DNA from: a virus
Length of the DNA stretch: 64,000 nucleotides
Reading direction: 5' to 3' (one strand)
IMG/VR virus record: IMGVR_UViG_3300042453_002354
Location: 92,878 to 156,877 of that record
Under the pieces are notes generated by a model. It did no database searches. It was not told the origin of the DNA and saw only the letters and a list, made by a program, of their open reading frames with translations. Positions 45,187 to 60,242 of this stretch are shown piece by piece. Numbering within the stretch: position 1 is the stretch's first letter; each line of letters starts with the position of its first letter. The translations under genes and the position numbers were made by a program.

Positions 45187-45207
45187 GATATATCCTATAG
45201 TACTTCA

Positions 45208-45807: not shown

Positions 45808-45817
45808 TTCCTTTATT

Positions 45818-45979: not shown

Positions 45980-46378
45980 TTAACCCTTTCTTTTAAATGG
46001 TACTTTCGCTATTCTCTCAAGGTTATAAACTCCTCTTTTCTGCCCTGTAGTATTTTCGGCACCTGTAACATAACACTCGGTAGCATTAAAGATGAAGGCG
46101 AACGAATTCCAAGGCCTACCACTATCGGGATCAACGAGAGATTTTAGTTCTTGTCTCGTTACAACTACACGGCCAAAGGTATCCACAATTTCTTGCAAGA
46201 ATGCGACTTTTTCGCTGTTTGTTCTGCTATTGTAAATACGCTTCTTTTTCTTGGTTCCCGACAAAACGCCCGTATTCGTAACTTTTGCGGAAACATCGGC
46301 CACAATAGTAGCTTCAGTAGTTTCGCCAAAATTCGTGTTTTCGGTAGTATTTGTCACATTTTCAGTAGTTATGCTCAT
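45980..46378 (-). CDS. Putative DNA-binding protein
   Basis: AGGAG RBS; T/E/N-rich N-terminus, basic patch, FG..VVTRQEL...KRGVYNL. Confidence 0.55.
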   Translation of the reverse strand: MSITTENVTNTTENTNFGETTEATIVADVSAKVTNTGVLSGTKKKKRIYNSRTNSEKVAFLQEIVDTFGRVVVTRQELKSLVDPDSGRPWNSFAFIFNATECYVTGAENTTGQKRGVYNLERIAKVPFKRKG

Positions 46379-46394
46379 AATATTATCTCCTATG

Positions 46395-46470
46395 TTTTTT
46401 CACACTTTTTCACACTTTTTTCGATTTTTTCACACTTTTTTGCGTTTTTTCTCGTTTTTCCTCATTTTTA
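46395..46470. repeat. Phased T/A-tract array (T5-6 every 9-11 bp; TTTTTCACAC x3)
   Basis: ttttttcacac tttttcacac ttttttcga ttttttcacac ttttttgcg ttttttctcg tttttcctca ttttt. Confidence 0.75.
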
Positions 46471-46701
46471 TTCATAAAGTTTTAGATCACGGCTATTCAA
46501 AAATTCATTCAATAATTGTCTAGCCTCGAACCAAATTTCATCTTCCGCTATTACTCTAGGTTCTGCAATGTATTTGTGATTAGCACGAAGTTTCTGATCA
46601 AGGTCCCATATCGCATCCTTCCATTTCTGTACGTCTGCCAGGTCTCTGGCAAACTGGTTAAACTCATTTTCATCCTCAAATGTTCGTGTAAATGTTATCA
46701 T
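46468..46701 (-). CDS. Hypothetical protein
   Basis: 77 aa; AIWDLDQ.LR...KY motif. Confidence 0.55.
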   Translation of the reverse strand: MITFTRTFEDENEFNQFARDLADVQKWKDAIWDLDQKLRANHKYIAEPRVIAEDEIWFEARQLLNEFLNSRDLKLYE

Positions 46702-46711
46702 AGCATTACCA

Positions 46712-46990
46712 TTAAAACGGATTATTCTCTAGTCTAAACGATCCATTACCTTCTGTCAATACTTTTGACACAATTGCCAAAAATTTATCGTGATCAATCT
46801 TTCTAAGAGTTAGTCCATGCTTTTTTGCGTATTTGTTGATATGTTTTGAAGTGGTTGTACTGTAAAACTGTTCACTAGCAACGGCGCCCTGGCCAGCTTC
46901 ATATACAACCACTGGCGTTTTATATGAAAACAGTATTGAAGCTGCACCAAAATTGAAAACTAGTTCGGTTGCGTTTGCCTTGCTCATAAT
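46712..46990 (-). CDS. Conserved phage hypothetical protein
   Basis: ILFSY.TPV, YSTTTSKHINK; AAGGAG RBS after half-copy of the repeat. Confidence 0.65.
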   Translation of the reverse strand: MMSKANATELVFNFGAASILFSYKTPVVVYEAGQGAVASEQFYSTTTSKHINKYAKKHGLTLRKIDHDKFLAIVSKVLTEGNGSFRLENNPF

Positions 46991-47006
46991 CATTCTCCTT
47001 ATATCA

Positions 47007-47023
47007 ATCACTATCTCTATTAT
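47007..47023 (-). repeat. Leader-only half copy of the repeated element
   Basis: ATAATAGAGATAGTGAT, its TAA is the stop of the upstream ORF. Confidence 0.65.
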
Positions 47024-47193
47024 CTGTCTTTCAATCTCTTAAACACATCAGCAGTAGCATCGAGAGTCTGAGAAAGAAACTCAAAGCACAATTCTTTGAA
47101 TTCTTCCATTTCTATATCGGTGTTTCGGCCTTCGGAAACGTTAGCGAAAAGAGTCCAGTAACGAGAAACCTTTTCTTCATCGAATCTTTCCAT
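47020..47193 (-). CDS. Hypothetical protein
   Basis: MERFDEEK after GGAGG; behind repeat copy 3. Confidence 0.55.
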   Translation of the reverse strand: MERFDEEKVSRYWTLFANVSEGRNTDIEMEEFKELCFEFLSQTLDATADVFKRLKDR

Positions 47194-47210
47194 ATCGCCT
47201 CCATCACTCA

Positions 47211-47257
47211 ATCACTCTCTCTATTATTAGTATCTCAAATTTGGCCATCCATGTCAA
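47211..47257 (-). promoter_or_regulatory. Repeated early promoter/leader element, copy 3
   Basis: TTGACA-N17-GATACT-aataatagagagagtgat. Confidence 0.85.
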
Positions 47258-47286
47258 TACTTTTTCGCCAAAATAATAAAAATATT

Positions 47287-47490
47287 TTAGTAAAGATACT
47301 CGATCAATTTTTCATAAACAAAATCACGATGTTGCGAATTAAGCTGATCCAGCTCATCTTCAGTCAGGGCGACACCATTTTTCCAAAATGCACCAGAAAT
47401 ATAAGCATCACAATAGTCTGGACAATCGGAATGATCAACGCCATCGAATGTTATATCATCAATTTTCAATATATTAAACATAGTACTCAC
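47287..47490 (-). CDS. Conserved small phage protein
   Basis: DGVD..D.PDYCDAYI..A....G..LT.DELD.LN. Confidence 0.6.
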   Translation of the reverse strand: MSTMFNILKIDDITFDGVDHSDCPDYCDAYISGAFWKNGVALTEDELDQLNSQHRDFVYEKLIEYLY

Positions 47491-47500
47491 TTTTTTATCT

Positions 47501-47713
47501 TTAATCCTGAAAAGCTACAGCCCAAGTCCGTGCAGAATCTCTAATCGCTTCACCGTTTGGATCATCTATGTAACAATCGTTTCCATCAGGGCCCCATACG
47601 TGAGACTCTGCGGCCTCTAGTGTAGAGTAAACACCTGCCACTGTTACAACTCCGGTAGAATCGGATAACACCACGAAAACTCTTTTCACATCATTCTTTG
47701 TATTCATAATCAT
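47501..47713 (-). CDS. Hypothetical protein
   Basis: Behind repeat copy 4; GVYST.EAA motif. Confidence 0.55.
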   Translation of the reverse strand: MIMNTKNDVKRVFVVLSDSTGVVTVAGVYSTLEAAESHVWGPDGNDCYIDDPNGEAIRDSARTWAVAFQD

Positions 47714-47723
47714 TCTCTTTACT

Positions 47724-47772
47724 TGATCACTATCTCTATTATTAGTATCTCAAATTTGGCCTCCTATGTCAA
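47724..47772 (-). promoter_or_regulatory. Repeated early promoter/leader element, copy 4
   Basis: TTGACA-N17-GATACT plus leader; preceded by inverted repeat ttggcgaaaata/tattttcgccaa (~47779-47809). Confidence 0.85.
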
Positions 47773-47827
47773 TACTTTTTGGCGAAAATAATGAAAATAT
47801 TTTCGCCAATTAAATCAATCACTTAGA

Positions 47828-48172
47828 TTAATCTGCTAGTGAATCGGGAAATTCATCCTCATACCCTAAAAGTACGTAATCTCCATGTTCCCATAGTGCG
47901 ATGAAATCAAAGGGCATTAGTGCATTATTAATAAGGCCGTCTAGTTCTTCAATCATTTCATCAAATAGTATTAGATCATCTTCATCATATTCATCAAGTT
48001 CCTGTAATAGTGAAACCGTAGGAATGAATAACTCTTCAGCAAGTTCAACCATTTTCAATATAGTTTGCTTTGGTGTTCGTGGTATAGCACCATCAATCCA
48101 ACAACCTTGAAGATTAATCAATTTTTGTGATATTTCACGGGCCGCCGGTGTTTCAAACGATTCTATTGCCAT
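47828..48172 (-). CDS. Hypothetical acidic protein (paralogue of 54808-55146)
   Basis: AGGAG RBS before MAIESF; G.WID and MIE..D.LIN...P...IALW..G.Y. Confidence 0.6.
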   Translation of the reverse strand: MAIESFETPAAREISQKLINLQGCWIDGAIPRTPKQTILKMVELAEELFIPTVSLLQELDEYDEDDLILFDEMIEELDGLINNALMPFDFIALWEHGDYVLLGYEDEFPDSLAD

Positions 48173-48182
48173 ATAGTCTCCT

Positions 48183-48728
48183 TTATATGTTAAACCACTC
48201 TGGTTTATGTTCAGGTATTCTCCATGTCGCAAATCTTGCTTTATCGTGTATATAATAGGTACGATATGCATCAACGGCACTCGTAGGGCTTTTGTATGCA
48301 TCAGGCATTGCTTGAGCAAATGTCGTTAAACCTTTACTCTGTAAGGCCGCCGGCGGTTCTCTTAATATGTTCATCAGTTCATCATTTCTTTCGCAAGCGT
48401 GAATTTTACCATATCTCCGTGTATACTCTTTGCACATTTCTACAAAATGACGAAACAACCATTCATAATTTTCGGTTGTTTCTCTTGTCCATATTGTACA
48501 AGGATGGTTTATATGCGTGATCTTGTATAGTATGGATTCTTTGTATGGTGAATGGTGTTTGTATCGCTTCTTCTTGCTACCTTTTGCTGGTGGCAGTTCT
48601 TCACCATCAATTATATGGTGTGTGGTGGACAACAATTGGGCCGATTCCAGAATCATCTTAACCACATGCTTATCACACAATGATCGTGCGGCCAGTTCCG
48701 GATTCTCATCAATCACGAATATATTCAT
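48183..48728 (-). CDS. Pyrimidine-dimer DNA glycosylase / endonuclease V-like family protein
   Basis: MNIF..D.NP..AA...CDKHVVKMILESAQLLST; LYK.TH.NHPCT.W; EYT.RYGK.H; QAMPD.YK; AYR.YY. Confidence 0.75.
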   Translation of the reverse strand: MNIFVIDENPELAARSLCDKHVVKMILESAQLLSTTHHIIDGEELPPAKGSKKKRYKHHSPYKESILYKITHINHPCTIWTRETTENYEWLFRHFVEMCKEYTRRYGKIHACERNDELMNILREPPAALQSKGLTTFAQAMPDAYKSPTSAVDAYRTYYIHDKARFATWRIPEHKPEWFNI

Positions 48729-48744
48729 AGAATCACATAATAAA

Positions 48745-48819
48745 TGGCTGGCGAGGTTGGGATCGAACCAACGACGAGCTGATTAACAGTCAGCCATTCT
48801 ACCACTGAATTACTCGCCA
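48745..48819 (-). tRNA. tRNA-Asn(GUU)
   Basis: TGGCGAG/CTCGCCA acceptor stem, G discriminator, CCA; anticodon arm GCTGA-CT-GTT-AA-TCAGC; GGTTCGATCC T-arm. Confidence 0.93.
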
Positions 48820-48829
48820 ATACTCCTTT

Positions 48830-48858
48830 ATATTAACATACAGAAAGATCTTGGTCAA
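48830..48858 (-). promoter_or_regulatory. sigma70-type promoter for tRNA-Asn (TTGACC-N17-TAATAT)
   Basis: -10 ends ~10 nt upstream of tRNA 5' end. Confidence 0.55.
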
Positions 48859-48861
48859 TAC

Positions 48862-49095
48862 TTAAAACACATTCTTAAACAGTCCATGCGCCTTTTCTTG
48901 GTGTTCTATTCTAGAGAATTGTAACAGTTCAAAGTTAGTAAGATTACCATAACCATGATGGAATATGCTATCAAGTGCATCAGGATTCTTAGCTAGGGCC
49001 TTAATCAAGGCCTTGTATGCGGTCATCGAATTACGAAAACTTTTAGGAAAACTATTTTTGAATCGTAGGGTCACTCTTGTTGATTTAGTTGCCAT
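48862..49095 (-). CDS. Hypothetical protein
   Basis: Behind repeat copy 5. Confidence 0.55.
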   Translation of the reverse strand: MATKSTRVTLRFKNSFPKSFRNSMTAYKALIKALAKNPDALDSIFHHGYGNLTNFELLQFSRIEHQEKAHGLFKNVF

Positions 49096-49111
49096 AATCA
49101 TTTCCTTTACT

Positions 49112-49160
49112 TGATCACTATCTCTATTATTAGTATCTCAAATTTGGCCTTCTGTGTCAA
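49112..49160 (-). promoter_or_regulatory. Repeated early promoter/leader element, copy 5
   Basis: TTGACA-N17-GATACT plus leader. Confidence 0.85.
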
Positions 49161-49172
49161 CACTTTTTGTAA

Positions 49173-49442
49173 TTATTGTAAAAATGATTGAACAATCTTT
49201 ACAAGGCCAACGGAATAGTTAGCATCATCAGAAAATTCATCGGCGTATTCTTCAGCGGCATCAAGGTCACTGAATTGTATTATATTGTCTTCACGCACAC
49301 ACCATATTTTATCATTCACTATGGCCACTTTGTATAAATGCTTGCTCAATTCAGAGGCCACAATTGAAAAATCTTTTGCTTCCGTTAAATTAAAGAATTC
49401 GATGATGTTTGATTCTCTTACGCACCACACTTCTGTTTTCAT
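49173..49442 (-). CDS. Hypothetical protein with internal tandem duplication
   Basis: WCVRESNIIEF..L.EA..F / WCVREDNIIQF..L.AA..Y; GGAGG RBS. Confidence 0.6.
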   Translation of the reverse strand: MKTEVWCVRESNIIEFFNLTEAKDFSIVASELSKHLYKVAIVNDKIWCVREDNIIQFSDLDAAEEYADEFSDDANYSVGLVKIVQSFLQ

Positions 49443-49457
49443 ATCGCCTCCGTATTA

Positions 49458-49504
49458 ATCACTCTCTATAATATTATAATGACACAATTGGCCCGCTATC
49501 GCAA
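49458..49504 (-). promoter_or_regulatory. Degenerate copy of the repeated element (TTGCGA-N17-CATTAT)
   Basis: Retains GGCCAATT spacer core and AGAGAGTGAT leader. Confidence 0.45.
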
Positions 49505-49600
49505 GCATTTTTATTGTGGTAGGCCATAATAAAAGTACTTGACAATCAAAATTTTTTATGTACGAAGGCCTTGCGGAAAAATTTCTTGACAGCTTAGTGT

Positions 49601-49695
49601 ATGGCCACCACATCCACCACAACAATACAATGGCCACCACAACCACCACAATACAATGGCCACCACAACCACCACAACAATACAGCGGCCACCAC
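49601..49695. repeat. Tandem repeat of 26-29 bp unit ATGGCCACCACAACCACCACAA(CAA)TACA; 7 CCACCAC cores
   Basis: CCACCAC at 49605, 49614, 49634, 49643, 49660, 49669, 49689. Confidence 0.85.
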
Positions 49696-49706
49696 TATAC
49701 TATTCT

Positions 49707-50069
49707 CTATTCACCTCTACTATAAATCTCCCATACATCGGACAGTGATACATGGAGATTATTTCTAATACCCTTTGGTATAGGTTCCCAGTATTGCTCA
49801 TCATCAGGGAATACACATACAAAACTTTTTACTATCTCGCTCATCAATTCGGCATCTTGTTTGCGATCATTTGTCTTTAACTGATTGAAGAAGAATTGTA
49901 CTAATCTGTCTATTAGATTGGCCGATGGAATTACATCAGGATGGTTTACTAGTCTTGATAATGCGTTCTTGTCACATCCACTCTTTTCTGATATTTCCTT
50001 TAGTGTAATTTTTCGCTTTTCTTTTTGTTCTAGTCTCTGTGTCATTTTTGCAAGATCAAAACGTATCAT
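49707..50069 (-). CDS. XRE/Cro-like HTH transcriptional regulator
   Basis: MIRF.L......E.KE.R.ITLKEISEKSGCDKNALSRL; AGGAG RBS; paralogue at 54418. Confidence 0.75.
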   Translation of the reverse strand: MIRFDLAKMTQRLEQKEKRKITLKEISEKSGCDKNALSRLVNHPDVIPSANLIDRLVQFFFNQLKTNDRKQDAELMSEIVKSFVCVFPDDEQYWEPIPKGIRNNLHVSLSDVWEIYSRGE

Positions 50070-50298
50070 GGCAATCTCTCCTATCAATGTTTCATAATGT
50101 AATCAAAACCGAACCTATCGATTCGTTTCCTTGAATGGGTATGGCCGTCACGCAATCCATTTTTGAAAACTACCTTCCGACTGGCGGAATCTTATTTTCC
50201 ATTTTACGATACTTGAATATGACGACCACCCAAGTATCAACCAATCTCTTAACAAGGCTCACTAGATCCGGTTTTCATCACACTATGATTTTTGTTTA

Positions 50299-50496
50299 CT
50301 ACTCGTCAATCTCTTCCCAAACAATGCGCTTGGCTAGCTTCCATCTTATTTTATTAAGTTCATTCAGTATTACATCTTGATTACTTTGTGATTTCAATTC
50401 AAGCTCAATTTTCTCAACCATTTCTAGAACCTCATCTCGGTCTACGATGGCCAATGCTCTCATTTCTGAATTGTTTCTCAAATCAACCATTTTCAT
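50299..50496 (-). CDS. Hypothetical protein
   Basis: Behind repeat copy 6; GAGGT RBS. Confidence 0.55.
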   Translation of the reverse strand: MKMVDLRNNSEMRALAIVDRDEVLEMVEKIELELKSQSNQDVILNELNKIRWKLAKRIVWEEIDE

Positions 50497-50513
50497 TTGA
50501 CCTCACCATTTTT

Positions 50514-50560
50514 ATCATTCTCTCTATTATTAGTATCTCAAATTTGGCCTTCTGTGTCAA
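50514..50560 (-). promoter_or_regulatory. Repeated early promoter/leader element, copy 6
   Basis: TTGACA-N17-GATACT-aataatagagagaatgat. Confidence 0.8.
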
Positions 50561-50838
50561 TCGTTTTTTGTCTTTCTATTATTCTTTATAGTCTGTACAA
50601 TCTCATTATAATCTGAACAATCTTCACCACATCCAGCACAAAACAGATTGTCCGGATCAATATCTGCACCACTTATCAGAAACAGTCTATTTCCAAAATC
50701 GGCCATTACTGTGGCACAACTCTCGCAATACGCATCTCCTATCATTTCATCACACAATATGATAGAATATGGAAACTGTTTGTGTTTCACGATGGTTTTA
50801 TATTCTGCTTTGTTTGTAATGAAGTGGCGCATCGTCAT
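50557..50838 (-). CDS. Small protein with two CxxC motifs (putative zinc finger)
   Basis: CESC ... CAGC; behind repeat copy 7. Confidence 0.6.
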   Translation of the reverse strand: MTMRHFITNKAEYKTIVKHKQFPYSIILCDEMIGDAYCESCATVMADFGNRLFLISGADIDPDNLFCAGCGEDCSDYNEIVQTIKNNRKTKND

Positions 50839-50848
50839 TCTCCTTTGT

Positions 50849-50897
50849 TGATCACTATCTCTACTATTAGTATCTCAAATTGGCCACACTCGATCAA
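50849..50897 (-). promoter_or_regulatory. Repeated early promoter/leader element, copy 7
   Basis: TTGATC-N17-GATACT-aatagtagagatagtgatca. Confidence 0.8.
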
Positions 50898-50905
50898 GTA
50901 TTTTA

Positions 50906-51118
50906 TTAAGATGATCCATATTTTTTGTTGATCGGCGCTCCACTATGCTCATAATGTTTCAATTCATTCAATAACTCTGTTACAGCATTAGTTACTTTAA
51001 AACAGGCAATTCTTAATCTATCTTTTTGGTAGCATTCACCAAAACGCTCTATTTCTTTTCTTATTGTAGATTGAGTTTGTTGTAGAGATTCTAATAATTC
51101 TTTTTGGAATTCGCTCAT
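50906..51118 (-). CDS. Hypothetical protein
   Basis: AAGGAG RBS before MSEFQK. Confidence 0.5.
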   Translation of the reverse strand: MSEFQKELLESLQQTQSTIRKEIERFGECYQKDRLRIACFKVTNAVTELLNELKHYEHSGAPINKKYGSS

Positions 51119-51119
51119 T

Positions 51120-51314
51120 TTATTCTCCTTCATTCAATTTTTGTGCCGTTATTGTCCAAGATATGGTTGAGATAACATCACCTATTTTCAGCTTAGTTTC
51201 TAGATCATCCACTTTACCCATAATGTCCACTAGATCGATGAATGAATATTCTAGTTGCTTTGATATGCTTTTTTCTGAGAAGTCCTGCCACCATTCTCTA
51301 TCAAATTTTTCCAT
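51120..51314 (-). CDS. Hypothetical protein
   Basis: Behind repeat copy 8. Confidence 0.55.
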   Translation of the reverse strand: MEKFDREWWQDFSEKSISKQLEYSFIDLVDIMGKVDDLETKLKIGDVISTISWTITAQKLNEGE

Positions 51315-51330
51315 TTCGTTTCTCCTATTG

Positions 51331-51379
51331 TTATCTCTTCCTCTATTATTAGTATCTCAAAACTGGCGTTCTGTGTCAA
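51331..51379 (-). promoter_or_regulatory. Repeated early promoter/leader element, copy 8
   Basis: TTGACA-N17-GATACT-aataatagaggaagagataa; leader identical to copy 9 through the ATG. Confidence 0.8.
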
Positions 51380-51397
51380 TGCTTTTTATGGACTATT

Positions 51398-51592
51398 TTA
51401 ATTCTCTAGTGTGAAAATATAGGTTTCTCCGTCATCATTGATCACTACTTCATCACCACTAAGAATTTTACTTAGTTCTTTTTCTGATATCTCCCACATG
51501 TCATATCGTTCTGAAAACAGGTCTACCGAAACATGATCAAAATTTAATCCGTCAATTTTCGATTCCATTCTTATCACTACTTGACTGGCCAT
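51398..51592 (-). CDS. Hypothetical acidic protein
   Basis: Behind repeat copy 9. Confidence 0.55.
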   Translation of the reverse strand: MASQVVIRMESKIDGLNFDHVSVDLFSERYDMWEISEKELSKILSGDEVVINDDGETYIFTLEN

Positions 51593-51608
51593 TTCGTTTC
51601 TCCTATTG

Positions 51609-51657
51609 TTATCTCTTCCTCTATTATTAGTATCTCAAATTTGGCCATCCATTGCAA
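51609..51657 (-). promoter_or_regulatory. Repeated early promoter/leader element, copy 9
   Basis: TTGCAA-N17-GATACT plus leader. Confidence 0.8.
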
Positions 51658-51742
51658 CCATTTTTTGGCTTTTTTTATTTTTTGTTGGTGTAGTGATATG
51701 AGGAATTTTGATTCAAAACGTCATTTTTGACGCTATTTTGAA

Positions 51743-51798
51743 CTAAGTGGTTGATTTTACTAGAATCGACCACTTAGCTAAGTTATTGATTTTACTAG
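51743..51798. repeat. Inverted plus direct repeat of CTAAGT(G/T)(G/A)TTGATTTTACTAG
   Basis: ctaagtggttgatt-ttactag-aatcgaccacttag immediately followed by ctaagttattgattttactag. Confidence 0.7.
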
Positions 51799-51800
51799 TG

Positions 51801-52208
51801 TTAGGAATTTAGTAGGGGTCTTGTTACAGTCTCGTAAACATCAGTTACGAACCACTTTCCAGTAAGATCCATCAGGTAAACATACTCTTGACCCGATCCT
51901 ACCGCATCATGCAAGAACGATTCGAGAGTAGATACCTTGGCCTCGGTCTCGGTGTCGCTTCTATCTCTTCCGTATGCTATGCACACACCATCTTGCGGTA
52001 CTGAAAAGTTATGCTGACCTGTGGGATGCATTTCATCAGCAAGTACGGAAAGATCGCCCAGCTCCATCAATTCGAGTACTCGTTCTCTTGTATTGTATGA
52101 TCTTAATAGCGTATCGCCCACACCTTCCGGATAACCGTCCCAGTGACAGTAAATATGCTTTATGCTTTGATCGTTCAATTGAATTGCTATAGTTGATCTA
52201 GTTGACAT
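51801..52208 (-). CDS. Conserved phage hypothetical protein
   Basis: MSTRS.I...IYCHWDGYPEGVG..L; C.AYGRDR; EY.YL....W. Confidence 0.75.
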   Translation of the reverse strand: MSTRSTIAIQLNDQSIKHIYCHWDGYPEGVGDTLLRSYNTRERVLELMELGDLSVLADEMHPTGQHNFSVPQDGVCIAYGRDRSDTETEAKVSTLESFLHDAVGSGQEYVYLMDLTGKWFVTDVYETVTRPLLNS

Positions 52209-52210
52209 GA

Positions 52211-52456
52211 TTACTCCTTAATTGTTTCAAGTATGGTTACAATTTTTTGTGCGGCATTTTGTGCATCGGATACTTGATCCACAACGTTATTCACTGCCCA
52301 ATTAAGTCGACTGTATATGTTACAATTCGGAAGACACGGCACAAATTTCCAATCTCTGATATCATTATCAGTGAAAAATTGGAGAATGTCTTCAAGCTCC
52401 TGTACAATCGTTTGGACTGCCTCTATTGCTTCTTGTTTATTATTCACTTTTGTCAT
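52211..52456 (-). CDS. Hypothetical protein
   Basis: AAGGAG RBS. Confidence 0.55.
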   Translation of the reverse strand: MTKVNNKQEAIEAVQTIVQELEDILQFFTDNDIRDWKFVPCLPNCNIYSRLNWAVNNVVDQVSDAQNAAQKIVTILETIKE

Positions 52457-52481
52457 TTCATTCTCCTTATTTCATAAGTTA

Positions 52482-52826
52482 TCAATCATCAGCACCATCA
52501 TAGTATGCGGGTAATCCTAATGCTTGAATTTTTTCTGCAATTGCTTTGGCCTGTGCTAGTGCCCTACCATCAGAGTTATCATATCCTACGTAAATTGCTC
52601 TATCTCCGGCTCCGTATGCTTTTCCTATGTATCTTAATCCTGCCCTTTCGGCACCTTGCTTATATGCATTCAATACCTTTGCTGGTACTTTGGTTAAACA
52701 CACATAAGCTCTACCGCAACCAAAACCACGGCCACTTGATCTTACCTGTAATCCTTCTAGAATTGCTTTGGTGATACTTTCTGATAACTGTTTCACTTGT
52801 GATTTATCGAGATTGTCTAGGTTCAT
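52482..52826 (-). CDS. Hypothetical protein
   Basis: GCGRAYV motif; behind repeat copy 10. Confidence 0.6.
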   Translation of the reverse strand: MNLDNLDKSQVKQLSESITKAILEGLQVRSSGRGFGCGRAYVCLTKVPAKVLNAYKQGAERAGLRYIGKAYGAGDRAIYVGYDNSDGRALAQAKAIAEKIQALGLPAYYDGADD

Positions 52827-52841
52827 ATCGTCTCCATTATT

Positions 52842-52890
52842 TGATTACTATCTCTATTATTAGTATCTCAAATTTGGCCTTCCGTGTCAA
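52842..52890 (-). promoter_or_regulatory. Repeated early promoter/leader element, copy 10
   Basis: TTGACA-N17-GATACT plus leader. Confidence 0.85.
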
Positions 52891-52911
52891 TACCTTTTTG
52901 GCTTTTTTTTA

Positions 52912-53187
52912 TTAAAATAATGTCATTTCAATTTTTTCATCATCGAATGTTTTCAACCACTTATCTATGGAATCGATATAATGCGCTCTAAAATTCAATA
53001 ATTCACCGACCACTATTTGATTTTCAAATAATTGTATGATCTTAAATTGATCTTGTCTTTTGTCATCGCCCCAGTATACACACTCGGCGATCAAAACGTG
53101 TTTTCCGTCATTGCTTTTCCACTTGTACGTATCGAGAACGGATTTACATTTACCATAGATCAAATCAGAAAATAGTTTCATAATCAT
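52912..53187 (-). CDS. Hypothetical protein
   Basis: AAGGAG RBS. Confidence 0.5.
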   Translation of the reverse strand: MIMKLFSDLIYGKCKSVLDTYKWKSNDGKHVLIAECVYWGDDKRQDQFKIIQLFENQIVVGELLNFRAHYIDSIDKWLKTFDDEKIEMTLF

Positions 53188-53414
53188 TCTCCTTTAATAT
53201 CTTTAGGAATGGTGATACCGCCAGCTTGCTTCAATTGTAACACCGATTTACACAAATTTTCATACGCTACCCACATCGTGTCTAATACTGCATGATTAGT
53301 AGGACTAGTTTCGTATAGTCTATGAATATTAAACAAAACCGTTTCTTGTAATTCCTCTAGTGTGTTTATCATATCTCTCTCACTAGAATATGGTATTAAA
53401 AGGTCTTCATACAT
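53184..53414 (-). CDS. Hypothetical protein
   Basis: ORF in operon. Confidence 0.5.
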   Translation of the reverse strand: MYEDLLIPYSSERDMINTLEELQETVLFNIHRLYETSPTNHAVLDTMWVAYENLCKSVLQLKQAGGITIPKDIKGE

Positions 53415-53424
53415 AGTGAATCCA

Positions 53425-53637
53425 TTATTTCACGTTTGAATAACCAAAACTCTTGTTCACATTTTTTACTGTATAAAACAATCTTGCCAGCTTGATTCTT
53501 TCATCAAGGCCTTTTCGGTCTTCACTGTAATCATATTCATCTATAGCATTAAGAAAGTTTCTTTTGCTTATCTTTTTATCGAATTCTATTTGAAATCTTT
53601 CGCCTTTATGGTTTTCACACTGTAAGAATCTTTTCAT
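53425..53637 (-). CDS. Hypothetical protein
   Basis: Behind repeat copy 11. Confidence 0.55.
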   Translation of the reverse strand: MKRFLQCENHKGERFQIEFDKKISKRNFLNAIDEYDYSEDRKGLDERIKLARLFYTVKNVNKSFGYSNVK

Positions 53638-53652
53638 ATCGTCTCCATTATT

Positions 53653-53701
53653 TGATCACTATCTCTATTATTAGTATCTCAAATTTGGCCTCCCATGTCA
53701 A
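53653..53701 (-). promoter_or_regulatory. Repeated early promoter/leader element, copy 11
   Basis: TTGACA-N17-GATACT plus leader. Confidence 0.85.
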
Positions 53702-53733
53702 TACTTTTTTGGTTTTTTTATTCGCCAATCATA

Positions 53734-54030
53734 TCAATCACTTAACCATTCAGACTGATAGCGATCAAAATCTTTTCTAAAGGTTGTTAGTGCATCATCT
53801 ACGGTTGCATAGTAGTATCGAGTTATATGCTCATTATCCAATCTCAAGCACAATCCAAGCCAGAGCCTTACAGAAATTCCATCTTCCGTGTCTATGTTCA
53901 GTGTGTTCAAATCAACTTCCGTTATGTCATAGTTTCCTTTTTCATTCAATTCAATCAAATCATTCTCATCAACATAAAATTGCCGATTCGAGTATCTTGG
54001 TGTAGTCTTCTTTACATAAAAATATTTCAT
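53734..54030 (-). CDS. Hypothetical protein
   Basis: GGGAG RBS. Confidence 0.55.
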   Translation of the reverse strand: MKYFYVKKTTPRYSNRQFYVDENDLIELNEKGNYDITEVDLNTLNIDTEDGISVRLWLGLCLRLDNEHITRYYYATVDDALTTFRKDFDRYQSEWLSD

Positions 54031-54062
54031 GATGCTTCTCCCTTAATCACTACAACCACAAA

Positions 54063-54320
54063 TCAATCTTTAAATGTTTTCGGTATATGAGTTATCACTT
54101 TTTGCCCATTCTTCAGTATAGCATCGAATTGTTTCGCATATCGAAACAATGGTTTCCAGCTTTCAAGATCTTCATTGTTGCGAAATATTGTATGAAGTTT
54201 CTTATTACCTTCAATCTGAAAAATGTCACCGAATTCACCGAATGACTGTCTAGTGGTTTTTATATTGAATCCAAGTGCCTTTATCTCTTTTCTGAATTGT
54301 GCAAGCTCAATCGTGTTCAT
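54063..54320 (-). CDS. Hypothetical protein
   Basis: Behind repeat copy 12. Confidence 0.55.
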   Translation of the reverse strand: MNTIELAQFRKEIKALGFNIKTTRQSFGEFGDIFQIEGNKKLHTIFRNNEDLESWKPLFRYAKQFDAILKNGQKVITHIPKTFKD

Positions 54321-54336
54321 GATGATTTCCTTTATT

Positions 54337-54385
54337 TGATCACTATCTCTATTATTAGTATCTCAAAATTGGCCTTCCGTGTCAA
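54337..54385 (-). promoter_or_regulatory. Repeated early promoter/leader element, copy 12
   Basis: TTGACA-N17-GATACT plus leader. Confidence 0.85.
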
Positions 54386-54417
54386 TACCTTTTTGGCTTT
54401 TTTATTCGTCAATCATA

Positions 54418-54792
54418 TCAACTACTTGCTTGATTATTGTAAATGTCCCACACATCATCTAACGAAACACTAGGGTTATCTTGAATACCTTTAGGAATTT
54501 GTTTCCAATACTTTTGATCATCGGGAAATATTGATACAAAATTGTGGATGATTTCTTTGATCAATGCTTCATGCTTTGTTTGATCATCATCTTTTAGTTC
54601 GTTGAACAAGAATTGAACCATCTTATCGATCACTGTTGCTGAGGGTATGACATCCGGCGCACTTCTCATTCTGGAAAGCACATTTCTATCACAACCACTT
54701 CTTTCAGATAATTCTTTTAGTGTAAGACGGCGACCTTCTCTTTCTTCTAGCAATTTTAACACGTATCCAAGATTGAATCGTATCATAGTCAC
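54418..54792 (-). CDS. XRE/Cro-like HTH transcriptional regulator (paralogue of 49707-50069)
   Basis: LTLKELSERSGCDRNVLSRM..PDVIPSA..ID..VQF; FPDD..YW..IPKGI. Confidence 0.75.
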   Translation of the reverse strand: MTMIRFNLGYVLKLLEEREGRRLTLKELSERSGCDRNVLSRMRSAPDVIPSATVIDKMVQFLFNELKDDDQTKHEALIKEIIHNFVSIFPDDQKYWKQIPKGIQDNPSVSLDDVWDIYNNQASS

Positions 54793-54807
54793 ACCATAAC
54801 ATAAAAA

Positions 54808-55146
54808 TTATTGAATTACGTCACTTTGCTCAAACAAGCAATCCACAACATAATAGCCATCTTTCCATAATGCAACTAAACCGTTTGGTCTAATCTTTTC
54901 GTTTATAAGAAAATCAATATCTTCAATCATATCGTTGTAAAATTGTTTTCTGGAAGATCTTTTCAATTTTTTCTTGTTTCTTTCGAGAAAATTGTGTAAT
55001 GTCATTACAAAACCGTACACGTCAATTTCAAAGGAATGTGCCATATCAAGAAATTGAAGCAAAAGATCATAGGCGTTTAGCTTTTCGGTATTGTCAATCC
55101 AACGACCCTTAACGATCTTCACCTTTGTTGATGATGTTTCTTCCAT
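54808..55146 (-). CDS. Hypothetical protein (paralogue of 47828-48172)
   Basis: KGRWID; MIEDIDFLINEKIRPNGLVALWKDGYYVV; behind repeat copy 13. Confidence 0.6.
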   Translation of the reverse strand: MEETSSTKVKIVKGRWIDNTEKLNAYDLLLQFLDMAHSFEIDVYGFVMTLHNFLERNKKKLKRSSRKQFYNDMIEDIDFLINEKIRPNGLVALWKDGYYVVDCLFEQSDVIQ

Positions 55147-55180
55147 GTTCTACCCCCACATTTTCATGAATAATAGTGTT

Positions 55181-55222
55181 TATCTCTATTATTAGTATCT
55201 CAAAATTGGCCAACCATTGCAA
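55181..55222 (-). promoter_or_regulatory. Repeated early promoter/leader element, copy 13
   Basis: TTGCAA-N17-GATACT-aataatagagata. Confidence 0.8.
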
Positions 55223-55286
55223 CAAAAAATAAAAAATTATTCTTCAGTGTTATCGAGGGTTTAGTTCACAACATAGTGCTTGACAA

Positions 55287-55547
55287 TTAGCTTTGATTGT
55301 GATCGTGCAATGGTATCTCTTCAATTGGTTGATCGATTCTTTCCTCCACCACGAATACATCAAAATGCTTTTCATCTTCTGGATGACAAATCTGTTCTAC
55401 AAACTTGTGATCGAATTTTGTTCGCCAATAAACAAATCTTTGAATAGTTGCATTCCATCGTGCTTGTGTCGCATTTCTGCATCTGCCACTATAGTATGCA
55501 CCATGTTCTAGGTTCGTTTTGGCTATTTTTGGTGTGTATCTTGACAC
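55287..55547 (-). CDS. Conserved phage hypothetical protein
   Basis: L.HGAYY.G.CRNA..ARW....F.YWR.KF....E.I.HPED...FDVF. Confidence 0.65.
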   Translation of the reverse strand: MSRYTPKIAKTNLEHGAYYSGRCRNATQARWNATIQRFVYWRTKFDHKFVEQICHPEDEKHFDVFVVEERIDQPIEEIPLHDHNQS

Positions 55548-55548
55548 A

Positions 55549-55770
55549 TCATTTCCTACTTTCTGTCATCCATTTCCAATCATCTTTTGCTTCTTGTAGT
55601 TTTTTCTCTAGTTCTCTGATTCTTTCTTTGAGCGTTTCAACTTCTCTCGCACCTGTTTCGTAACCATCGTACCAAGCTATTTCGACATCAGTGGCCGACC
55701 ATTCTGCCTCACGATTGAATTGATTTACATATTCTTCTGCCAATAGTTCTGGTTCTTTTGTCATTTCCAT
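55549..55770 (-). CDS. Hypothetical coiled-coil protein
   Basis: GAGGA RBS; promoter TTGCAA-N17-TAACAT at 55803-55831. Confidence 0.55.
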   Translation of the reverse strand: MEMTKEPELLAEEYVNQFNREAEWSATDVEIAWYDGYETGAREVETLKERIRELEKKLQEAKDDWKWMTESRK

Positions 55771-55857
55771 ATTGTTATCCTCGTTGTTGTCTGGTATATT
55801 TTATGTTACTATACTATAGAACACGTTGCAATAGAAAAGTAAGAATAAATATTGTAT

Positions 55858-56367
55858 ATGGTATTACGCTTTAATCAATTCATATCAGAAACATTAGTGG
55901 TATATCGAGGCTCTTTCGGTGTGTCCAATTCTCCTATTCTTTGGGTCAGTACCTCCAAGGAACATGCTGGCATTTATTCGTTTGATAGAAAAACTGGCGC
56001 AAAAGGTGAGGTCACTGAATACCGCATAACCAAAAGAATTGACGATATTGATCTTGGATTTCGTGCAGCAGAGATTTCTGTACCATTTGAAGAAGTTCGT
56101 GGCAGATTAAAAACTGCACTAATGGATCGATATGAAGAAAACAGAGTTACTGAAAAAACAGCAATCGATATCGCAGAAAAGCTAGATTCACTCAAATATT
56201 CAGGTAGCAAGCCTGTTTGGTTTTGGATGTACAAACCTGCTGTTATTCAATCAATTCGTTCAATGGGGTTTAATTGTATCAAACAACGTGAAGGTATACA
56301 ATCACACACTGGTAATGTCATCACTTATGGCATTCTTGATAGATCGATGATTTCTAAGATTTCTTAA
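55858..56367 (+). CDS. Putative ADP-ribosyltransferase-fold internal virion protein
   Basis: MVLRFNQFISE N-terminus; VYRG, WVSTS..HA..Y, G.V..Y pattern of ART-like folds; AATAAATA at 55844-55851. Confidence 0.5.
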   Translation: MVLRFNQFISETLVVYRGSFGVSNSPILWVSTSKEHAGIYSFDRKTGAKGEVTEYRITKRIDDIDLGFRAAEISVPFEEVRGRLKTALMDRYEENRVTEKTAIDIAEKLDSLKYSGSKPVWFWMYKPAVIQSIRSMGFNCIKQREGIQSHTGNVITYGILDRSMISKIS

Positions 56368-56482
56368 TTTTTACTTCTGCTCTCTTAGCTTTCTGAATAT
56401 GAAAATTTTATTCAATTTGGCAATCAAAGATCCTTTCCGGAAACGATAAAAAAGGCTTTTTAAAAGGTTTTTACTTTTGGAT

Positions 56483-57481
56483 TTAGCTCCAAAGCTGTCT
56501 AAAGTGATCCTTAACAGACTCTATCTCTTTTTGTATTTTATTCACATCTTTTAGTTTTTTCAGCTTTCTGATCAATTCTATGGTTTCTGGCACTTCTGGT
56601 GCTCTGAATATTTGTACAGTTTTTTGAAGTGGTACTAGTCTCATAGATCCTGGCTTCACTCTTTGATATAGCTCTATCGAATACGCTGGTGTTCTCATCA
56701 GCACGCTTCTCGTCACCAATATGCCGTTCAGTTCGTCTAGTGGTATGAATACCATTGTACCTAGATTATCCATATCTTGTGCTTGCATTTCTTTGGTGAG
56801 GAATGAACGCATATCAGCTTTTGTGATTTTCTTTTTTGCTGTTTCTTGTTCTAGTTTGTTCTTCGGAAACAGAGACTCCGGCGAGTTCATCGCTTTTGAT
56901 ACGGTCACAGAATTGTACACCTTTTGTGTCATCTTGATTTTCTTGCCATTTTTGTAAGCAAAAGATCTCATAGAGATTTCTTGTTCTGCATCACCACCAC
57001 CAAGTGAGGCAACGGGACGTTCTGAGTTCATAATGCTGAGTTCAAAGTATTTTGTTCTGTCTTTGTTGTGAACAGTTAGTGTGATGTACCAAAACCAAAC
57101 ACCTTTGTTCTTTACGTGTTCTCTATTGGTTTCGATCTTGCTTTCAAAGTTCTCTTTGAATATCGACTCAAAGTGTTTTTCGTATGCGGCTACGTTTAGA
57201 TTTTTGACCATCGCATCGAGCACTTGTAGCACTCTTTCGTTTGTATTGACTGTCGGTGTAGTTTTTGCGGTTCTTGATGAGGATTTCAATAGCTCGTAAG
57301 CCAAATTGATCTTCTGCATCATTTCTTTTGAACCACCCTTGTCTGGATGATTCGCAATGGCGGCAACTTTGTATGCTTTCTTGACATCATCTGACGTATA
57401 GCTAGAGGGCAGTTTGAGAATAGTTTCTGCCTCTCCTCTTGATAGTGTGATTTCAATGAGAAAGTTCTTAAAGTTTTTCAT
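56483..57481 (-). CDS. J-domain (DnaJ N-terminal) protein with capsid-targeting-like N-terminus
   Basis: MKNFKNFLIE; A..IL.L......VKKAYK..A...HPDKGGS.E.MQKIN.AYE.LK; AATAAATA at 57514-57521. Confidence 0.8.
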   Translation of the reverse strand: MKNFKNFLIEITLSRGEAETILKLPSSYTSDDVKKAYKVAAIANHPDKGGSKEMMQKINLAYELLKSSSRTAKTTPTVNTNERVLQVLDAMVKNLNVAAYEKHFESIFKENFESKIETNREHVKNKGVWFWYITLTVHNKDRTKYFELSIMNSERPVASLGGGDAEQEISMRSFAYKNGKKIKMTQKVYNSVTVSKAMNSPESLFPKNKLEQETAKKKITKADMRSFLTKEMQAQDMDNLGTMVFIPLDELNGILVTRSVLMRTPAYSIELYQRVKPGSMRLVPLQKTVQIFRAPEVPETIELIRKLKKLKDVNKIQKEIESVKDHFRQLWS

Positions 57482-57527
57482 AGCTAATAGAAACCTTTGA
57501 TCTTGCTTTCATCTATTTATTGTTATT

Positions 57528-57704
57528 TTATAGTGACTTTCCCCATTGCACTCGTAACCAAATCCTTTCGTGTGCATAGTGTGCAAATATCATCAGAACG
57601 TTGATTGCTATTGCACCTTGAAGTCCCGTCCAAAATGCTGTGATTAGTGTTGCAGTTACTCTCCAACTTAAAGCTCTTGTTATTGTTCTTTTGTGAGTTT
57701 CCAT
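57528..57704 (-). CDS. DUF2061-like small membrane protein
   Basis: ET..R...RALSWR..AT..T; Y.HERIW.RV.WG; AAAGGA RBS. Confidence 0.7.
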   Translation of the reverse strand: METHKRTITRALSWRVTATLITAFWTGLQGAIAINVLMIFAHYAHERIWLRVQWGKSL

Positions 57705-57775
57705 TGATTTTCCTTTGAATAAATAATATAATGGGTGGCATTGTGTCATATAATAATCATAGGATCAAGAACAAA

Positions 57776-58456
57776 ATGAAAAGTTTTCAAGAGTTCTTCA
57801 TATCAGAAGGCGTTAGTGATCAGGGTATCTTTAAAGCGGTATTTCTTGCCGGTGGACCTGGTTCTGGTAAATCTTTTGTTTCTAAAAACACACTGCCAAA
57901 CGCTATTCTTGGATTAAAAGTTATCAATTCGGATGAGGTTTTGGAGTTTCTACTCAAAAAACATAATGTAGGTTCAAATATGAATCTAATGTCACCGGAT
58001 GAATTGAAGAAGTTTGCTGACATAAGAGACAAAGCCAAAAAAATAACAGCAAAAAGAGAAGAAATATATCTCGAAGGTAGATTAGGTCTTGTCATAGATG
58101 GTACTGGAAGAGACTATGACAAAATTGCCAAAAAGAAAGCAGAATTAGAAAAGCTCGGTTATGATACTTATTTGCTGTTTGTGAATACTTCACTTGAAGT
58201 CGCCAGAGAACGTAATCGCAAAAGGGCTCGTAGTGTTTCGGATGATCTTGTAGTTCAGTATTGGAACGATGTTCAAAGCAATATAGGAAGATTTCAAAGT
58301 TTGTTCGGTTCACAAAATTTTACCGTTGTTGACAATAATAATGCAGATGAGGCCATATTGAACGATGTGTTCAAAGGTATTAAAAGGTTTGTAGATAAAC
58401 CACCTCGTTCACAACAAGCTAGACAGTGGATTACAGCTAAATCAGGAAATAAGTGA
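57776..58456 (+). CDS. P-loop kinase (zeta-toxin/AAA_33-like) with capsid-targeting-like N-terminus
   Basis: MKSFQEFFISE-GV; FKAVFLAGGPGSGKS; VINSD; LVIDGTG; FVNTSLEVA.ERN..R.R; AATAAATA at 57718-57725. Confidence 0.8.
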   Translation: MKSFQEFFISEGVSDQGIFKAVFLAGGPGSGKSFVSKNTLPNAILGLKVINSDEVLEFLLKKHNVGSNMNLMSPDELKKFADIRDKAKKITAKREEIYLEGRLGLVIDGTGRDYDKIAKKKAELEKLGYDTYLLFVNTSLEVARERNRKRARSVSDDLVVQYWNDVQSNIGRFQSLFGSQNFTVVDNNNADEAILNDVFKGIKRFVDKPPRSQQARQWITAKSGNK

Positions 58457-58882
58457 ATCTAGTGCTGGTTTTGTCTTCTTAAACCAATCGACTAATTTTT
58501 TGTTTGCATCTTCTATTGAAGTTTTTGATGTGATTTTTCTAAACTTCACAACGTCTCTCTGTTTGTAGTGTGAAGAGACTAACTCCCAAGAAACGGAAGA
58601 AAGATTTACGAGTTTACCGTAATTAGAAGAAAGATGCATCATTAATTTTATGCTTGCTGGTGAATTCTCTGCTATGTTATTATATGGTTTCGTGTCGTGT
58701 ATGTGTAGGTATATGTGATTACCAAGATTTTTTGAAGCCTTTTTGAATACAACATATCTATCACCCAAAACAGACTTCAGATCAGATGATAACTTTTCAG
58801 CTAAATCTACAAAATTGTCGTCGATGTATTTTGCGGTCAGTTTTTCAGACTGTTCAGCTAAAAATGTTTTCAAATCTTTCAT
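58442..58882 (-). CDS. Hypothetical protein with capsid-targeting-like N-terminus
   Basis: MKDLKTFLAE; behind repeat copy 14. Confidence 0.6.
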   Translation of the reverse strand: MKDLKTFLAEQSEKLTAKYIDDNFVDLAEKLSSDLKSVLGDRYVVFKKASKNLGNHIYLHIHDTKPYNNIAENSPASIKLMMHLSSNYGKLVNLSSVSWELVSSHYKQRDVVKFRKITSKTSIEDANKKLVDWFKKTKPALDSLIS

Positions 58883-58909
58883 GACATTTTCCTACAATTT
58901 TCTGTTATT

Positions 58910-58958
58910 TGATCACTATCTCTATTATTAGTATCTCAAATTTGGCCTGCGTTGTCAA
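58910..58958 (-). promoter_or_regulatory. Repeated early promoter/leader element, copy 14
   Basis: TTGACA-N17-GATACT-aataatagagatagtgatca. Confidence 0.85.
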
Positions 58959-58982: not shown

Positions 58983-60242
58983 CTATAAAACTTTGGAAAA
59001 ATGTATTCCCACCTGTTCGGCGAGATATACAGGAACGGCATTACCGATCTGAGTATATTTTGGCAACTCACGATCAAATATTCCTTGATGAGGATTTCCC
59101 GCCCTTCTCAAACCACCAGTGGTTCTACTTCCGGCAAACTGATACCAGTCTGGGAATCCTTGAAGTCTAGCCCATTCTCTTACCGTTAAAATTCGTGCTT
59201 GCGAAAAATGAACGTAGTCATCGGGTAGAGAAGTTACAGTTATTGATGGACCACTTTTATTCCAACGAGCGGGAAGAAGTCGTTGAGCGAATTTCTTAGT
59301 TTTAAGATGTGGTGGTATCTCTCCATTGTGTTTCAACATATGAGTGAATTTTTCTATCACCTTATCCGAATGATTAGAATACTCTTGTTCAGTTAGTACA
59401 GCACCCTCTGGAGCAACTTTTCCATCTATACCAGTACGAATAAGTTTCTGATATTCGTTCATTGCCTCATTAAGATACTTATCTGTGCTACTACCGTATT
59501 GAAAATTAGGATCAATTAGATCACCAAGTAGATCAATTAAGTCAGGAGCACCATAAGTAGGTTTAGGTAAAAAACCATCGGCCACTTTGCTGTCAATCTT
59601 TTCCCAAATCGATGTATCAACATCATCCCTTACACCAACAACTAGTACTCTTGGTCGATTCTGTGGAGCACCGTAATCTTTAGACAGAACCAAGGCGTGA
59701 CTAACACGATAGCACTTAATTGAATTAAAAGAATGTAAAACATCTTCAAATATTTCACCTTTAGTTCCGTTTGGTGTCCACTTAGCTGAGAGTAGACCTT
59801 TTACATTTTCAAAAAGAAAAATCTTTGGTTTAAGTTTATTAACAACCCAAGCCATATCTTGATATAAATGATTAGATGGTAGTTGTTCTTTATGTACGGA
59901 ATATGAACGTCTATGTCCAATACCGGAGAATCCTTGACATGGCGGACCTCCTACCACCAAATCCAGATCTCCATCCTCAATAGAAATCTTAAATTCTCTT
60001 TTAAGAGAATTCATGATTTTCTTAATTACTCCTTCTTTCGTAACTATATTTTTAATGTCATATTCGTGGAATTCAGGATTAGTCAATCTTGGTTCTATTA
60101 TTTGCCGATTCATCAAATAACTACTCATAGCATTTTTGTTAAGTTCGTTTACGAATACAGGATGAAATCCTGCTTTCTCCAAACCTAATGAAAGACCACC
60201 ACAACCAGCAAATAGATCGACTGCAAATTTTTTAGATTTCAT
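58983..60242 (-). CDS. DNA (cytosine-5) methyltransferase
   Basis: DLFAGCGG, GGPPCQGFS, FENVKG, PQ.R.RV, LTVRE.ARLQGFPD, QIGNAVP. Confidence 0.95.
   Translation of the reverse strand: MKSKKFAVDLFAGCGGLSLGLEKAGFHPVFVNELNKNAMSSYLMNRQIIEPRLTNPEFHEYDIKNIVTKEGVIKKIMNSLKREFKISIEDGDLDLVVGGPPCQGFSGIGHRRSYSVHKEQLPSNHLYQDMAWVVNKLKPKIFLFENVKGLLSAKWTPNGTKGEIFEDVLHSFNSIKCYRVSHALVLSKDYGAPQNRPRVLVVGVRDDVDTSIWEKIDSKVADGFLPKPTYGAPDLIDLLGDLIDPNFQYGSSTDKYLNEAMNEYQKLIRTGIDGKVAPEGAVLTEQEYSNHSDKVIEKFTHMLKHNGEIPPHLKTKKFAQRLLPARWNKSGPSITVTSLPDDYVHFSQARILTVREWARLQGFPDWYQFAGSRTTGGLRRAGNPHQGIFDRELPKYTQIGNAVPVYLAEQVGIHFSKVL

Follow-up and report, generated by a model that had tools for sequence, protein, structure and literature searches.

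Why should four neighbouring genes whose products are otherwise unrelated all begin with a similar leader of 10 or 11 residues? The question is raised by a cluster, here called ORF1 to ORF4 (ORF, open reading frame), in a 64,000-nucleotide stretch of viral DNA, hereafter the window, which comprises bases 92,878-156,877 of the 156,877-bp IMG/VR virus record IMGVR_UViG_3300042453_002354, a record estimated to be 92% complete. The answer that we favour, with reasonable if not high confidence, is that these N-terminal 10-11 residues are a T4-type capsid targeting sequence (CTS) applied to new cargo. The mechanism would be one already known from T4, only the cargo being new, and on the evidence of their sequences ORF1-ORF4 are probably targeted to the head, trimmed by the prohead protease and injected. 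The case is strongest for ORF3 and weakest for ORF4. The four genes are as follows (coordinates are those of the window unless marked "genome"):

55858-56367, plus strand: ORF1, 169 amino acids (aa); 11-residue leader MVLRFNQFISE (55858-55890); compact ADP-ribosyltransferase (ART)-fold domain with YRG, STS and QxE motifs
56483-57481, minus strand: ORF2, 332 aa; 10-residue leader MKNFKNFLIE (57452-57481); HPD-bearing J-domain, C-terminal domain of Rki type, and an extension at the C-terminus
57776-58456, plus strand: ORF3, 226 aa; 11-residue leader MKSFQEFFISE (57776-57808), ending FISE/GV (a slash marks a cleavage site throughout); Zeta_toxin/AAA_33 P-loop kinase
58442-58882, minus strand: ORF4, 146 aa; 10-residue leader MKDLKTFLAE (58853-58882); alpha/beta domain

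All four starts, on alternating strands, are as quoted in the original prediction, which was made without database searches, and the bodies behind them are unrelated, as it had said, for they differ in family or fold. The ends of the convergent genes ORF3 and ORF4 overlap by 15 nucleotides (nt).

How closely do these leaders resemble those of T4? Mutagenesis of the CTS of T4 internal protein (IP) III assigned residues 4 and 7 to targeting and residues 8 and 10 to processing (PMC9026906). In the T4 record, ipII and ipIII start MKTYQEFIAE/A, ipI starts MKTFKEF and is cut at ITE/A, gp23 is cut at FLTE/A, the leaders of gp22 and gp24 end in IAE and LRE, respectively, and Alt starts MELITELFDE. The leaders studied here have, at the extreme N-terminus, a hydrophobic or aromatic residue at positions 4 and 7, an aliphatic residue at position 8 and Glu at the presumptive cut site. 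ORF2 and ORF4, together with a DUF5661 and a DUF6267 protein encoded elsewhere in the genome, fit positions 4, 7, 8 and 10 of the T4 CTS exactly, and ORF1 and ORF3 fit them with one extra residue before the Glu. By this comparison the four leaders are T4 CTS-like, each ending in [LI]-x-Glu.

The genome-wide scan for the motif that the original prediction had proposed gave a clear result. We called 210 genes in the whole genome and found the core [FLY]..F[ILF].{1,2}E at 17 places in the 49,288 residues of their products; in six proteins it stands at residue 4 or 5, compared with 0.11 expected from its internal rate (Poisson 2.5e-9), where the six matches count upstream ATG starts for ORF1 and the DUF6267 gene. 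Four of the six tagged proteins are adjacent, and none of the recognisable replication or nucleotide-metabolism proteins of the genome is among these N-terminal matches. The two tagged proteins outside the cluster are the DUF5661 protein (genome 27263-27532) and the DUF6267 protein, which is ligase-like (genome 44462-45673); we found no literature on DUF6267 or DUF5661. The DUF6267 Pfam profile begins at residue 13 of the tagged protein, and the gene directly upstream has a looser leader, MKTLSKILKE. Two further genes outside the window have looser CTS-like starts, g054 (genome 31275-31808) with MKTYKVILSE and g062 (genome 39733-40851) with MMKGFKDLE, the latter having CATAAATA with its first base 38 nt 5' of the ATG.

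A targeting sequence of T4 type requires T4-type machinery, and the genome encodes it. Its closest phages are Methylophilales phage Melnitz and Pelagibacter phage HTVC008M, to whose major capsid proteins its own Gp23-family protein is ~54% identical, and it has a gp21-type Peptidase_S77 prohead protease (PF03420, 134.5 bits), a gp22-type scaffold (T4_CASP, phrog_237), a homologue of the late sigma factor gp55, and T4-type baseplate, tail-fibre and virion-structural genes (portal, sheath and tube genes were assigned from gene order). Because of this combination of capsid protein, prohead protease, scaffold, tail genes and gp55 homologue, we conclude that the source phage belongs, if distantly, to the T4 superfamily and has the complete T4 machinery of head maturation. 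The phage's own scaffold has an N-terminal leader that ends KLIQE/A, and its capsid protein has LNE/A twice, just upstream of the conserved mature region; it is therefore plausible that the [LI]-x-Glu cleavage rule applies in this phage too. A megablast search of the cluster DNA against phage records found no match.

When are the tagged genes expressed? As first noted, three of the four have the late-promoter-like element AATAAATA upstream, and ORF4 does not:

55844-55851, plus strand: AATAAATA late-promoter-like element, ending 6 nt 5' of the ORF1 ATG; the gap holds no Shine-Dalgarno sequence
57514-57521, minus strand: AATAAATA late-promoter-like element, first base 40 nt 5' of the ORF2 ATG
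57718-57725, plus strand: AATAAATA late-promoter-like element, first base 58 nt 5' of the ORF3 ATG, overlapping a sigma70-like TTGATT-17-TATAAT
58924-58958, minus strand: sigma70-type promoter module that precedes ORF4; the window has 15 near-identical copies of it in all
44895-44929 and 54351-54385, minus strand: two more example sites of this module

The motif NATAAATA is rarer overall than expected (49 copies vs ~118), and 35 of its 49 copies lie within 100 nt 5' of same-strand starts, where 3.3 are expected (P about 2e-30). Because the genes behind it are mostly those for capsid, portal, sheath, tube and baseplate, and because gp55 is present, we read NATAAATA as the late promoter of the source phage. 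The DUF5661 gene and the operon with the DUF6267 gene have it upstream too; altogether five of seven genes with a leader have it, compared with 16% of all genes (P = 0.0015). The sigma70-type module consists of TTGACA, a variable pentamer and a fixed 24-nt stretch with an extended -10; its fifteen near-identical copies, all on the minus strand, lie in 39001-58958 of the window, where 0.2 are expected by chance, and the 14 other than that at ORF4 head early cassettes of small genes at 44.9-55.2 kb. Sigma70-like sites as such are not in excess in the cluster (14 vs 11.2 in shuffles), and only the module upstream of ORF4 stands out. The original prediction had named expression that is early only as grounds for abandoning it: the late motif at ORF1-ORF3 speaks for the prediction, and the early-type module, which is all that ORF4 has, speaks against it for that gene.

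The evidence for targeting is best for ORF3, which was rightly described as a zeta-like P-loop kinase: it exceeds the cut-offs of both Zeta_toxin (PF06414, 45.9 bits vs 22.3) and AAA_33 (PF13671, 49.2 bits vs 27) and has the Walker A motif GPGSGKS. We propose that the kinase would act on a nucleotide-like or polynucleotide substrate. Zeta toxins proper are UDP-GlcNAc kinases with an epsilon-type antitoxin as partner; no antitoxin family was found among the neighbours scanned, which did not include every small ORF. The ORF3 family comprises at least 7,965 proteins and is very abundant in marine metagenomes; nearly all begin MK.F..FL.E or a shorter MK.F.ELQE, followed by a conserved GV.DP.IFKA. 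In HTVC008M, an operon (L010 2248-6441) encodes a ligase-like DUF6267 protein, a 170-aa protein, the zeta-like kinase homologous to ORF3 and an NMNAT-like/DUF5824 protein, a grouping that hints at a shared function of nucleotide or RNA-repair type. In the genome studied here the families of that operon are split between two places. Melnitz, like HTVC008M, has a tagged homologue of the kinase. Sequence searches of the PDB with ORF3, the DUF6267 protein and the ORF4 profile returned nothing.

The most informative relative of ORF3 is gp53 of Agrobacterium phage Atu_ph07 (AUZ94865.1), which is 46% identical to it over 214 aa and whose kinase domain starts at the same Glu/Gly-Val junction. We equated AUZ94865.1 with gp53 by numbering from AUZ94813 as gp1 and by its computed mass of 87.07 kDa, compared with 87,08 in the published table. 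Electrospray ionization tandem mass spectrometry of Atu_ph07 virions detected 31 unique peptides of gp53, giving a coverage of 45.5% (PMC6102473 Table S5), and, although gp53 is an 87-kDa protein, its own abundance was highest in gel band 9, which holds ~21-kDa proteins (PMC6102473 Table S5). Atu_ph07 has a gp21 homologue, gp204 (PMC6102473). The gp53 kinase domain is bounded by VTE/GV (residue 252) and LTE/L (residue 458), which would release a fragment of ~23 kDa. Because of the virion peptides, the ~21-kDa band and the size of the bounded domain, we take gp53 to be virion-associated and apparently cut at the place that corresponds to the end of the ORF3 leader. The two proteins differ in that the kinase is an internal domain, seemingly cut out, of a 778-aa multi-domain protein in gp53, whereas in ORF3 it stands alone behind an 11-residue leader. 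As a whole gp53 (L012 1254-3590) is polyprotein-like, with four [LV]-x-E sites (NE/A at residue 8, TE/G at 252, TE/L at 458 and NE/L at 582) and an LFDT motif after the last two. Its N-terminal part has a YRG but no similarity to ORF1, and a Rosetta-stone link between ART and kinase was dropped. Virion data for Ralstonia phage RsoM2USA, whose ORF254 is a tagged homologue, cover the ten strongest bands only and, as ORF254 is not among these, are uninformative; a proteomics paper on marine phages covered no relatives (PMC12014285).

For ORF1 an ART fold had been claimed, and both a structure search with its model and the order of its R, STS and QxE motifs bear this out. The AlphaFold model has a predicted local distance difference test (pLDDT) score of 84.5, with residues 1-11 disordered. 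When it was searched against 48,161 chains the first 31 rows were all of the ART superfamily (Z 7.4 to 4.3), and the structural neighbours include diphtheria-toxin homologues, RES, ParT, MbcT, AcrIF11, PARPs and a cyanophage pre-ejectosome protein. Foldseek rows were mostly ARTs, yet every E value was above 0.001; in a language-model atlas ORF1 lies beside ART-PolyVal and AcrIF11 clusters. Five metagenomic homologues were found in which YRG, STS and QxE are invariant, and in the model Y16-R17-G18, S31-T32-S33 and Q143-x-E145 are located on strands 14-19, 28-31 and 140-145 (beta-1, beta-2 and beta-5). No Pfam ART family matched at E < 0.1, and BLASTP against T4 Alt gave E = 0.2, that is, no detectable homology. 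We consider ORF1, as modelled, to be a putative compact ART-fold enzyme and an analogue of T4 Alt. Its homologues retain the leader. In the more distant contigs L019 and L020 the ART homologue is flanked by two other tagged genes, the three being side by side behind AATAAATA.

The J-domain assigned to ORF2 in the original prediction likewise holds, with 34.3 bits for PF00226 against a cut-off of 27.8 and an invariant H45-P46-D47. Its one studied relative is Rki of phage RB43 (ORF057w), also a J-domain protein, which binds DnaK and has a stabilising effect on sigma32 (PMC3486835). The J-domains are 36% identical and the C-terminal domain aligns too, with an invariant P..FP..K; invariant in the alignment are F104, P201, F205, P206 and K209, and ORF2 matches phrog_13942 at 2.3e-38. 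RB43 Rki has no leader and aligns from ORF2 residue 8, about where the leader ends. Whereas Rki is untagged and expressed early from a sigma70 promoter, ORF2 has a leader, a late-type motif and ~100 extra C-terminal residues. CTS-like leaders are borne by homologues of ORF2 from Vibrio phage VmeM-32 (ALY07140.1) and from one phage each of Desulfovibrio and Variovorax; the VmeM-32 homologue has the leader MKSTKQFLME and a perfect TATAAATA starting ~48 nt 5' of its ATG. By analogy with Rki, ORF2 should engage host DnaK. The takeover of the host before transcription, with recruitment of DnaK, that the original prediction had put forward would rest on this analogy to a protein that is itself early and untagged.

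ORF4 had been called an ORFan, which is incorrect, as we found 92 related representative clusters, at least 26 of which have leaders of the MK.F..F..E type and others of which have none. Its model is a confident one (pLDDT 94.6) and places the leader in a helix (residues 4-15, pLDDT about 78), yet fold searches found no convincing match in the PDB and only uncharacterised viral proteins in BFVD. A 98%-identical contig keeps ORF1-ORF4, their leaders and the promoter motifs, with one leader change, at the x of L-x-E. In this relative the C5 cytosine methyltransferase gene next to the cluster (58983-60242) gives way (L017 9146-9898) to a gene unrelated to it, on the plus strand and preceded by a TATAAATA of its own, and the cluster therefore borders a variable island. 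One more small gene lies within the cluster:

57528-57749, minus strand: ORF of 73 aa between ORF2 and ORF3, hydrophobic, overlapping the ORF3 promoter region

This ORF is kept in the 98% relative, a family search with it found no match, and it may not be part of the tagged set.

Considered across these proteins, the leader behaves as a separable module: it is absent in RB43 Rki, variable in the relatives of ORF4, outside the DUF6267 profile and disordered in the ORF1 model. What, then, would such a module do? From the motif, the machinery and the promoters we infer the following course of docking, cleavage, packaging and injection. Tagged proteins would be made mainly late, ORF1, ORF2 and ORF3 from NATAAATA/gp55 promoters; as the prohead assembles, the leader would dock each of them to its gp22-type scaffolding core; the gp21-type protease would remove it after the Glu of [LI]-x-E; and the mature cargo would remain in the head alongside the DNA and pass with it into the next host, where the cargo could therefore act before any phage gene is transcribed. 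The cargo set would comprise an ART-fold enzyme, an Rki-family J-domain protein, a zeta/AAA_33-type kinase and the conserved ORF4 protein, and at least two further genes elsewhere, those for the DUF5661 protein and the ligase-like DUF6267 protein, would belong to it by their tags.

The CTS has been suggested to be a general route by which T4-like phages load varied proteins (PMC9026906; PMC3012670), and the closest precedent is the set of T4 internal proteins IPI, IPII and IPIII (Mullaney and Black 1996). Common to both are an MK-start leader of 10-19 residues with an aromatic residue at position 4, Phe at 7, an aliphatic residue at 8 and a cut at Glu; the gp21/gp22/gp23 machinery; unrelated bodies behind a common tag; and a location in a variable region. 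However, the cargo here consists of enzymes and co-chaperones of 146-332 aa, not small basic IPs, two of the leaders are one residue longer, and the source phage, which is uncultured, is further still from T4 than from its nearest cultured relatives with their ~54% capsid identity. ORF1 resembles T4 Alt in its ART superfamily membership, R/S/E-type motif and similar style of N-terminal propeptide, and it would share with Alt late expression and delivery with the DNA. It is much smaller than Alt, though (169 vs 682 aa), and its nearest structures are diphtheria-toxin-like, RES, ParT and AcrIF11 ARTs. Polyvalent proteins, P1 Dar and the N4 virion RNA polymerase (PMC5512222) provide another parallel as head-loaded enzymes, ARTs included, that pre-empt the host; these are large proteins of several domains that reach the head by MuF, portal-linked or other routes, whereas the proteins here are small and separate, each with a cleavable tag of T4 type.

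Could the similarity of the four N-termini have arisen without any role in capsid targeting? The motif is short and degenerate and the genome AT-rich, and chance resemblance might be suspected for that reason. The motif counts given above effectively refute it, as do the adjacency of four of the six matches and the preservation of the motif in homologues at 37-50% identity, and we give it next to no weight. A shared N-terminus with another role, such as a docking helix for some other phage or host partner or an AT-rich initiation region, in proteins that act only in the producing cell, deserves more consideration, although we regard it as improbable. Lys, Phe, Asn and Ile codons are AT-rich and would favour initiation. 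Against this, it is amino-acid positions and not codons that are conserved (an aromatic residue at 4, Phe or Tyr at 7, an aliphatic one at 8 and Glu at 10 or 11), and they match the determinants mapped in T4; the motif ends in [LI]-x-E like the phage's own scaffold and capsid propeptides; it is associated with late promoters; and a homologue of the kinase is found in virions, apparently cut at the equivalent E/G junction.

Several observations nevertheless weigh against capsid targeting or limit its reach, and some of them fit such a non-capsid element. The leader is so nearly universal in the ORF3 family that it could be an integral N-terminal element of the kinase. The Atu_ph07 virions were purified with polyethylene glycol only and the list of their proteins holds some likely contaminants (PMC6102473). 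A strict DNA pattern of the leader had only 3 matches in five cultured relatives, so that the tag has not spread evenly through the clade. The one relative of ORF2 to have been studied, RB43 Rki, is cytoplasmic and made early (PMC3486835). At ORF1, AATAAATA leaves no room for a ribosome-binding site; three genes have NATAAATA followed by an ATG after 6-7 nt without a Shine-Dalgarno sequence (window 55844-55860; g095, genome 66979-67000; and L021 5962-5979), and because the spacing recurs in g095 and in the L021 gene, a homologue of ORF1 that comes from a different contig and has 37% identity, it is probably functional and perhaps yields a leaderless late mRNA. ORF4 has no NATAAATA and lies behind the sigma70-type module, and because that module is shared with the early small-gene cassettes ORF4 is probably transcribed early. 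This leads to a further possibility, that of a mixed set in which the tag serves as a CTS in the kinase and probably in the ART and the J-domain protein, whereas ORF4, perhaps with others, is an ordinary early protein of the cytoplasm, its leader inherited and either unused or used only by whatever fraction of the protein lasts until heads are assembled. Its grounds are the early module and missing late motif of ORF4, the many ORF4 relatives without a leader, and a model in which the leader is a confident helix and not a floppy tail. However, over a quarter of the distant relatives of ORF4 keep a leader with the same spacing and terminal Glu, which argues for selection on it, and an early-type promoter is compatible with packaging: T4 ipI has, in the T4 record, a sigma70-like TTTACA-N17-TACTAT and no TATAAATA within 80 nt, yet is packaged, so that the case of ORF4 is weakened and not refuted. 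We consider a mixed set unlikely, albeit the most credible of these alternatives, and retain a T4-type CTS on new cargo as the preferred explanation of the leaders.

What would such a set of proteins be for? Tentatively, and with rather more reserve than we attach to the targeting sequence, we suggest that a ready-made protein toolkit, consisting of a DnaK co-chaperone, an ART, a nucleotide or polynucleotide kinase and a ligase-like enzyme, is delivered before transcription, and that the Rki family, early in RB43, is packaged here and in several other phages. If this is true, gain or loss of a 10-residue tag together with a promoter swap would, in the course of evolution, turn an "early gene" into an "injected protein" or back, and the Rki homologues that are tagged and late versus those that are untagged and early offer a natural comparison for asking why a phage should inject a protein rather than express it early. 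Three enzyme classes, a J-domain co-chaperone, a compact ART and a zeta-like kinase, would join the phage proteins that are delivered together with DNA. Given the abundance of the kinase family in marine metagenomes, a function as virion cargo would matter ecologically. And if the tag works as it does in T4, the injected proteome of uncultured T4-like phages would be readable from sequence by way of these short leaders.

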